This document shows, piece after piece, positions 22,739 through 23,296 of a stretch of DNA of 47,498 bases. This DNA is from a virus (lineage: Duplodnaviria > Heunggongvirae > Uroviricota > Caudoviricetes), in the IMG/VR virus record IMGVR_UViG_2660238269_000006; one strand, 5' to 3'. The notes under the pieces are model-generated. The model had not been told where the DNA came from. It saw only the letters and a list, made by a program, of their open reading frames with translations, and did not search any database. A program made the position numbers and the translations under genes. Each line of letters begins with the position of its first letter. Within the stretch, counting starts at the first letter, position 1.

Positions 22739-23296
22739 ATGAACCATGAAGAAATGAATCAGCGCTTCAGTCGCCTGGAAAATGAAATTGCTGAACTGAA
22801 TAAAAAACTGTCGACGCTGATGCCTTCTGAAGATGAAAAAAAACGCCGCGATGAGCAGTTTGCTGCGTTTGACGATTATTGTCGGAAAGTGATGAGCAGA
22901 AATCTCGCAGAGTGTTTCAGTATTCATAATGATAATTTCAGTGAGCTGGAATGGGAGTGTAACCGGCCATCCTTTGTTGTATCCGGTGATGGTGTGAAAA
23001 TAACCATCTCAGAAAATGGGAAAGTAACACCTCCATCGCACCAGCACAGTGAGGAGCTCATTGAATTTGCCATTGATTACCTGAAGAACAATAAAAAACA
23101 GGGGCTGATGCAGCGCATTGGTCGTTGCATGGGGTATCTGCAGGTAGCCGCTGAGATTGAAGCGCTGGCCAGTGGTGCGGACAAGGATTCAGTTGTGCGG
23201 GAGGCACTTCTTCGTGATTTTGATCATCCGCCCTTTAAAAAAGTGCCGGCTTACTGGCTTCATCCCGGACTGACTTATCTGAAAGTGCGTATTTAG
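22739..23296 (+). CDS. Hypothetical protein (185 aa) inserted between holin and endolysin
   Basis: Starts 4 nt after the holin stop; N-terminal coiled-coil (RFSRLENEIAELNKKLSTL); no recognisable family. Confidence 0.5.
   Translation: MNHEEMNQRFSRLENEIAELNKKLSTLMPSEDEKKRRDEQFAAFDDYCRKVMSRNLAECFSIHNDNFSELEWECNRPSFVVSGDGVKITISENGKVTPPSHQHSEELIEFAIDYLKNNKKQGLMQRIGRCMGYLQVAAEIEALASGADKDSVVREALLRDFDHPPFKKVPAYWLHPGLTYLKVRI

Follow-up and report, generated by a model that had tools for sequence, protein, structure and literature searches.

A described occupant of the position studied here is ydfR (b1555) in the Qin prophage of Escherichia coli K-12, which codes for a 103-residue protein of the DUF1327 family (PF07041) and follows the holin gene essQ after 4 nt. 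Residues 1-72 of K-12 YdfR were found to bind the catalytic half of RNase E (Rne 1-597) by two-hybrid assay and co-purification; RNA also co-purified with YdfR, and few transcripts changed on its overexpression (PMC13232886). Surveys of the lysis cassettes of Shiga toxin (Stx) phages treated the pinholin, the signal-anchor-release (SAR) endolysin and Rz/Rz1, and no genes between S and R (PMC8136144, PMC10462455). In the present study, a gene of 185 amino acids (aa) was analyzed that lies between the holin gene (S) and the endolysin, or lysozyme, gene (R) in the IMG/VR record IMGVR_UViG_2660238269_000006, a Caudoviricetes sequence of 47,498 nt, the whole of which is called the window below. The gene is very probably an optional, moron-like cargo gene of the holin/endolysin junction in E. 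coli lambdoid prophages, and its product, of about 21 kDa, a soluble protein of the cytoplasm that joins a helical hairpin to a conserved C-terminal domain. The original prediction, made from the sequence alone, had called the gene unrecognised. That description did not hold, for RefSeq already annotates it as the hypothetical protein WP_042969680.1 within a lambdoid prophage, and the protein is a full-length member of phrog_1085 (unknown function), its residues 1-185 matching profile positions 117-296 of 296 with E = 8e-111.

The place of the gene and its neighbours were as first described, with the ATG 4 nt past the last base of the holin stop codon (Table 1). The holin, the upstream partner, shows a Met1/Met4 dual-start motif and ends in TGA at 22733-22735, and the spacer before the ATG is the 3-nt ATA. 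In phage 933W the same slot is empty: the stop codon of S is followed by GCTG and the ATG of R, and the GGGGAGAG element serves R. The 933W holin is identical to that of the window at 71 of 71 positions (100%). The 933W lysozyme is 96% identical to that of the window, and of the seven differences three lie in its first six codons, a pattern that a recombination boundary would be expected to leave. The 185-aa gene has a guanine-cytosine (GC) content of 45.7%, also at third codon positions (GC3, 45.7%), and the corresponding values are 55.1% (GC3 69.4%) in the holin and 53.2% (GC3 55.1%) in the lysozyme gene. The 36-nt spacer ahead of the lysozyme is part of the inserted block, because 21 of the 26 distinct holin-to-lysozyme intervals with a 185/186-aa open reading frame (ORF) have the same length of 597 nt. 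Since S and R are joined directly in 933W behind an identical holin, and since the insert is GC-poor, the gene is best read as a moron-like insertion at the S/R junction, in an optional and polymorphic slot. Among the three options offered at first (a lysis regulator, an anti-defence protein released at lysis, and a moron), the moron was the best supported, in a late-expressed form without a detectable promoter of its own.

The slot was then compared across genomes. DNA matching the gene was found in 885 of 5426 complete E. coli genomes (about 16%), at 1231 places, and at least 80% of the gene was present in 250 complete genomes; its 558 nt were 100% identical in five complete chromosomes of E. 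coli that make Shiga toxin (STEC). The direct S-R junction occurred in at least 647 complete E. coli genomes, and the holin itself was found 8847 times in 2452 genomes. With these counts, and with ydfR in the same slot of K-12 Qin, the arrangement is not the unusual one that it was first taken for. Among an initial set of 86 loci from E. coli, Shigella and IMG/VR, the order was holin, gene, lysozyme wherever the flanks were long enough, the gene starting 3-4 nt past the holin stop and the lysozyme, in most loci, about 40 nt past the gene. Across 75 distinct holin-to-lysozyme intervals, the ORF behind the holin was of 185/186, 213, 268, 296/297 or 328/329 aa. A frameshift or stop codon shortened it in eight of these slot versions (about 11%), to 11, 11, 27, 50, 50, 108, 163 and 194 aa, and the 185/186-aa form was intact in 24 distinct versions. 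In Salmonella (loci L161 and L162) and on a divergent contig (L163), the homologue was located upstream of the holin, within the Q-to-S stretch of the late region, and the holin and lysozyme genes overlapped as in classical cassettes. The distribution among related cassettes, which the original prediction had proposed to survey, was one of fixed position in E. coli, a polymorphic slot there, and a place upstream of the holin in Salmonella.

The signals around the gene were in agreement with the co-expression at lysis that had been proposed. The GGAG core of the Shine-Dalgarno (SD) element GGGGAGAG, which lies inside the 3' end of the holin gene, ends 8 nt before the ATG. Crude consensus matching on the plus strand gave no promoter-like site in 21800-25100 and no terminator-like site from the holin start (22520) to the lysozyme end (23866); the nearest plus-strand terminator-like sites were at 22453-22482, upstream of the holin, and at 23962-23984, downstream of R. 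Rfam gave no RNA gene between 19646 and 44597, and so none in or around the ORF. The gene, with no detectable promoter or terminator of its own, would be on one transcript with S, R and Rz, started at the Q-dependent late promoter, and its translation would start from the SD element embedded in the holin 3' end. With such transcription and such a ribosome-binding site, synthesis of the protein would fall in the final minutes of the lytic cycle and would roughly keep pace with that of the holin. Judged from this anatomy, late and holin-coupled expression is probable. Inside the late operon, between the DUF826 gene and the holin start, the site at 22453-22482 (+) forms a 13-bp terminator-like hairpin with a T-rich tail, through which Q-modified polymerase is presumably expected to read.

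The insertion also bears on the endolysin. The lysozyme gene of 933W uses the strong GGGGAGAG inside the holin gene, and in the window this element serves the inserted gene. No obvious SD element was seen by inspection of the 36-nt spacer at 23297-23332. The insert thus appears to have taken over the ribosome-binding site of the endolysin, leaving R behind an SD-less, AT-rich leader of 36 nt, and endolysin translation may differ between occupied and empty cassettes.

This anatomy would also fit a modulator of lysis timing, which would bind the basic cytoplasmic C-terminal tail of the holin or otherwise tune its triggering, in the manner of T4 RIII or P1 LydB. Translational coupling would keep the amount of such a protein in a fixed ratio to the pinholin. 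The effect on timing may also be indirect, the insert displacing R behind the SD-less spacer and lowering endolysin synthesis. Besides the 4-nt distance from the holin stop, the use of the SD element that R uses in 933W and the SD-less leader left to R, the charge of the protein fits such a role, as the hairpin (pI 5.35) and the linker (pI 4.4) are acidic and the holin C-tail is basic. Furthermore, all relatives with readable context, in E. coli and in Salmonella, adjoin a cassette of PF04971 holin and PF00959 lysozyme, and cytoplasmic antiholins encoded beside holins have a precedent in P1 lydA-lydB. However, the identical holin works without the gene in 933W, and the homologues of Salmonella and L163 stand upstream of the holin, with other ORFs between, and are uncoupled from it. 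The truncation of about one in nine distinct copies, the absence of a transmembrane segment, and the lack of similarity to lysis-category PHROGs or LydB argue against this role as well, and we regard it as unlikely. Because the slot is empty in 933W, a functional phage with an identical holin, an obligatory part in lysis is unlikely too. The protein showed no muralytic or lysis match in Pfam or PHROGs, no transmembrane segment and no signal sequence, and it is probably not a core component of lysis.

The predicted protein has a mass of about 21.4 kDa and a pI of 5.9. It showed no membrane segment and no signal peptide-like N-terminus (maximum 19-residue hydropathy 0.76), and it is predicted to be soluble and cytoplasmic. 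The AlphaFold2 model built with 20 aligned sequences, Salmonella and metagenomic relatives included, reached a mean predicted local distance difference test (pLDDT) score of 83 and a predicted template modelling score of 0.60, and the model with E. coli relatives only was poor (pLDDT 61). The coiled coil noted from the sequence was recovered as helices 3-27 and 31-59, and in the first helix seven of the eight a/d heptad positions were hydrophobic (M6, F10, L13, I17, L20, L24 and L27). This helix is a predicted leucine-zipper-like coiled coil and, going by the model, probably drives oligomerisation. The C-terminal domain was modelled with three short strands at 80-97 and helices at 101-117, 123-144, 151-161 and 178-184, and it carries the invariant signature G128-R129...L134-Q135-x-A137 and P165-x-K167...W173..P176...Y180. 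No significant fold match was obtained with Foldseek against PDB (best E = 0.85) or BFVD (best E = 0.38), and the best profile match to PDB sequences (E = 0.076) was noise. The remote homology search and structure prediction that the original prediction had proposed therefore gave a family and a model, and no fold match in PDB or BFVD. At residues 160-166 (window 23216-23236), a conserved internal motif DFD(H/N)PPF was observed, which reads DFDHPPF in the window. The single-stranded DNA-binding protein (SSB) of E. coli has the acidic C-terminal tip DFDDDIPF, which works as a free C-terminus. Mimicry of this tip was considered and treated as a probable coincidence, as SSB tips need a free C-terminus.

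The relatives of the protein form a domain-shuffled family. All five PHROG matches were labelled unknown function, and scans of the protein and its relatives against Pfam, NCBIfam and PADLOC yielded nothing beyond coiled-coil noise below threshold (such as Relaxase_C, HLH and DegQ). A large protein database gave 171 relatives, all the named ones from E. coli, with lengths that fall into the classes 185, 205-222 and 259-296 aa. PF07041 is carried by the long relatives, which are named 'YdfR family' or 'DUF1327 domain-containing'. This domain was matched by four longer relatives in the same alignment (best E = 1.7e-43), and no match to it was found in the 185-aa protein, either at E ≤ 1 or in a scan member by member. 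The alignment showed a mosaic of four parts, which are an optional N-terminal DUF1327 domain, the helical hairpin (residues 1-60 of the 185-aa protein), a variable middle with or without an insert of 24-36 aa, and a C-terminal stretch (residues 124-185) that is almost invariant; the insert is present in the 205-222-aa relatives. The parts recur in different combinations in the slot, as DUF1327 alone in K-12 ydfR, as DUF1327 with the hairpin in PhiR12 phages (169 aa), as DUF1327 with the hairpin and an unrelated C-terminus in Stx1a phages (263 aa), and as the hairpin joined to a different N-terminal domain in the relative P0132. The matches in the Stx1a and PhiR12 phage proteins span only residues 1-65 of the 185-aa protein, and its first helix is a different allele from that of the long forms, shared with the 213-aa forms. 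The 185-aa protein is accordingly classed, from these alignments, as the combination of hairpin and C-terminal domain of this family without DUF1327. What appears new here is a particular domain combination; the family itself is already catalogued and its function uncharacterised, and no functional study of the hairpin and C-terminal module was found in the literature on lysis cassettes and DUF1327/YdfR, in which the RNase E interaction screen of K-12 YdfR was the one paper of relevance.

The family has a narrow reach. The profile search of 1.84 billion cluster representatives (E ≤ 1e-3) gave only 44 matches, corresponding to about 40 true clusters at 50% identity. Four of the 44 (P0136, P0146, P0149 and P0159) were rejected as false positives caused by SRCR, Big_12, HEAT and LRR repeats. 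The distant true relatives (29-42% identity) were hypothetical proteins of Salmonella enterica prophages and a few metagenomic contigs. Ten columns were invariant across 20 sequences from E. coli, Salmonella and other sources (G128, R129, L134, Q135, A137, P165, K167, W173, P176 and Y180). Where the source was known, all relatives came from enterobacterial prophages. In addition, the scan of GTDB genomes gave three loci only, all in Escherichia or Shigella, and IMG/VR, scanned with the distant relatives as seeds, yielded nothing but E. coli-type loci. On these searches, the family appears confined to enterobacterial lambdoid prophages.

Coding constraint was estimated on 25 distinct full-length alleles of the gene from related loci. 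The ratio of nonsynonymous to synonymous substitution rates (dN/dS) was 0.26 in frame, and 1.0 and 2.1 when the same alignment was read in the two other frames; variable sites at the three codon positions numbered 31, 29 and 53. Because of this difference between the frames, the ORF is taken as a real gene under moderate constraint and not a chance ORF. The neighbours gave 0.08 (holin), 0.09 (lysozyme) and 0.43 (Rz). Along the gene, dN/dS was 0.24 for residues 66-185 and 0.23-0.26 for the C-terminal domain, and about 1.3 for residues 31-65, a value resting on very few substitutions.

The mosaic sequence and its domain shuffling, the narrow distribution (about 40 clusters), the dN/dS threefold that of the neighbours and the presence/absence polymorphism of the slot would also suit a role in anti-defence or competition between phages. 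The protein would then be expressed late and either inhibit a host immune system that detects late products of the phage or act in exclusion, in some relatives paired with a small convergent gene downstream. An ORF of about 104-107 aa (phrog_1853) converges on the homologues in 26 of the 162 assessable loci, often overlapping their 3' ends. The same partner stands beside the two most divergent homologues, where its copies share 37% (E = 1e-26) and 29% (E = 2e-9) identity with gp06 of the Stx2-converting phage 86, and its conservation there speaks for this role. From this recurrence, the homologue and the convergent ORF may form a two-gene module. A second and unrelated convergent type, of 86 aa and phrog_2572-like, was found in PhiR12 phages and in Salmonella. 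The idea of a single conserved convergent partner was dropped, as two unrelated families of small ORFs occur and the window has neither. The missing partner in the window stands against an anti-defence role, as do the lack of similarity to any known protein and an expression too late to counter early-acting defences. The absence of a PADLOC match counts against the defence or exclusion version only, since PADLOC covers defence systems. On balance, anti-defence or competition was judged improbable, to about the same degree as the modulation of lysis timing.

It is very unlikely that the gene is selfish or decaying cargo without present function, a remnant of a longer YdfR-family gene minus DUF1327 in largely defective prophages; the missing N-terminal domain of the long forms, the truncated copies, the ratio in residues 31-65 and the full function of empty-slot phages agree with decay, and against it stand the in-frame constraint over the whole gene and its C-terminal domain, the 24 intact slot versions, the near-complete copies in 250 genomes, and a C-terminal motif that persists in relatives, those of Salmonella among them, at identities as low as 30%.

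The reading of the gene as optional late-operon cargo that is not a core lysis component was combined with a proposed activity. The protein would be an oligomer that works in the cytoplasm as a binder or adaptor, and its conserved C-terminal domain would engage a target of the host or of a competitor, in phage-host conflict or host takeover. The RNA-decay machinery would be the one concrete candidate target, because the long relatives fuse the module of hairpin and C-terminal domain to DUF1327, and the DUF1327 protein YdfR of K-12 binds RNase E. This specific version is put forward as a tentative suggestion, and the explanation as a whole, of optional late cargo whose product is a cytoplasmic binder or adaptor, has about an even chance of being right. 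Several points weigh against it. The 185-aa protein is without DUF1327, and the RNase E link is guilt by domain fusion and may not apply. No homologue of the C-terminal domain with a known function was found, nor any match to a fold or in PADLOC, and for want of such matches the conflict role rests on the indirect signs of mosaicism, narrow host range and relaxed constraint. Moreover, the scan for promoters and terminators used crude consensus matching, and the tight translational coupling to the holin would equally fit a role in lysis timing.

The C-terminal domain could also define a new class of late cytoplasmic effector tied to cassettes of pinholin and SAR endolysin, a broader proposal of low probability. 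In one possible version, the effector would be a new soluble regulator of pinholin triggering, dosed through translational coupling. In the other, also possible, it would be half of a two-gene conflict module with the convergent phrog_1853, and DUF1327 would tether the long forms to RNase E. In STEC, Shiga toxin is released through the same holin-endolysin cassette, and an accessory protein made in step with the holin could therefore act on the timing of lysis, on burst size or on the release of the toxin, or it could shield the phage at a late stage of infection. The slot is naturally polymorphic (empty, ydfR, short and long forms), so isogenic comparisons would be easy to design. As it stands, the gene is one more uncharacterised prophage cargo gene and would not surprise specialists.

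The coordinates of the gene, the parts of its product and the other features are given in Table 1. The local order, as annotated in the five STEC chromosomes, is DNA methyltransferase, three tRNAs, TerB, DUF3927, IraM, NanS-p-like esterase, DUF1378, DUF826, holin, 185-aa gene, lysozyme, Rz and terminase. The N-terminus of the lysozyme, the downstream partner, is hydrophobic and SAR-like. The Rfam matches in the table are those above the gathering score, and they lie outside 19646-44597.

Table 1. Positions of the 185-aa gene, the regions of its product and further features; positions refer to the window unless a locus is named
Feature	Position	Strand	Basis or remark
185-aa gene	22739..23296	+	ATG at 22739, TAG at 23294-23296; coordinates take in the stop codon
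N-terminal helical hairpin, aa 3-59	22745..22915	+	AlphaFold2 helices 3-27, 31-59, pLDDT 72-96
Variable/disordered linker, aa 60-78	22916..22972	+	pLDDT <50 for residues 55-68; alignment
Conserved C-terminal alpha/beta domain, aa 79-185	22973..23293	+	pLDDT 84-96 over most of the domain
S21-type (P21-type) class II holin, pinholin, 71 aa	22520..22735	+	PF04971, E = 6.8e-33; RefSeq 'class II holin family protein'
Shine-Dalgarno GGGGAGAG within last holin codons	22725..22732	+	Read from sequence
Spacer, 36 nt, AT-rich, ahead of lysozyme start	23297..23332	+	Sequence
Lysozyme (endolysin), 177 aa	23333..23866	+	PF00959, E = 3e-24
Rz i-spanin	24165..24632	+	PF03245, E = 2.9e-49; end of lysis cassette
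Rz1 o-spanin, embedded in Rz	24385-24570	+	ORF list
Convergent ORFs in related loci	L002:3358-3672, L003:3654-3968, L168:585-902, L169:436-759; also L165:2643-2903, L161:4881-5141	-	
C4 antisense RNA and isrK, adjoining	4833-4920, 4945-5021	-	Rfam
Three tRNAs downstream of methyltransferase	17762-18010	+	Rfam
STnc100 small RNA, just upstream of nanS-p-like esterase	19437-19645	+	Rfam
sok antitoxin RNA (hok/sok-type), near right end	44598-44756	+	Rfam

Further observations were made along the window. The gap between lysozyme and Rz (23867-24164) has 298 nt and a GC content of 43%, with a terminator-like hairpin and T-run at 23962-23984. In 933W and Stx2-phage 86, the antirepressor gene 'ant' was found at the position of this gap, and because of this the gap is a second polymorphic slot of the cassette, apparently empty or holding a remnant in the window. 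At 24062-24163 (+), a 33-codon ORF whose product has one hydrophobic segment stops 1 nt short of the start codon of Rz (TGA-A-ATG). It was present in 38 related loci with near-identical DNA, so its conservation says little; it may encode a small membrane protein of the lysis cassette, or it may have arisen by chance. At about 18100-19600, by correspondence with L001:1643-2872, the window has genes for a TerB-family and a DUF3927 protein, together with one for the anti-adaptor IraM on the opposite strand. In Stx phages, stx lies at this place, flanked by the tRNAs and nanS-p, and the window prophage thus has other cargo at the toxin position.

Compared with known systems, the 185-aa protein resembles the antiholins P1 LydB and T4 RIII in being small, soluble and encoded directly after a holin; T4 RIII is a cytoplasmic antiholin. 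LydB was rejected as a relative (BLASTP E = 1.6, hhalign probability 0.1%). Among the PHROGs of the lysis category there was no match either, T4 RI and RIII being compared only via PHROGs. In PADLOC-DB 2.0, no family matched the protein at E ≤ 1, and one relative had a single match at chance level (E = 0.018). YdfR occupies the same slot, and ydfR overlaps the lysozyme gene rrrQ by ATGA. YdfR is the DUF1327 module alone, whereas the 185-aa protein is hairpin and C-terminal domain without it, and the RNase E-binding part of YdfR is absent from the 185-aa protein. BLASTP gave no alignment between the two proteins. The N-terminus of a long form of 287 aa did align with K-12 YdfR (40% identity), and through the long forms both proteins are placed, by sequence comparison, in one domain-shuffled family.

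The nearest likeness is to the long YdfR-family proteins themselves (gp05 of Stx2-converting phage 86, YP_794052.1, 268 aa, and forms of 287-329 aa), which occupy the same slot directly after the holin. The forms of 287-296 aa are 82-91% identical over residues 4-185, and gp05 is 83.5% identical over residues 71-185. The 185-aa protein starts at the hairpin, without the first 100-116 or so residues of the long forms (DUF1327 plus linker). Homology to a known accessory protein of lysis cassettes had been named as a finding that would count against the first interpretation; it was present as the match to the body of these same-slot proteins, and it did not extend to lysis PHROGs or LydB. Morons are extra genes between genes that are adjacent in related phages, such as bor and lom of lambda, or stx and nanS-p in the late region. 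The 185-aa gene may differ from them, as no promoter or terminator of its own was seen in the crude scan; with its apparent dependence on late transcription and on the Shine-Dalgarno element in the holin gene, expression from a repressed prophage would not be expected. Like a moron, it separates S from R, two genes that are neighbours in 933W, deviates in GC content, is dispensable, and is present or absent among close relatives.

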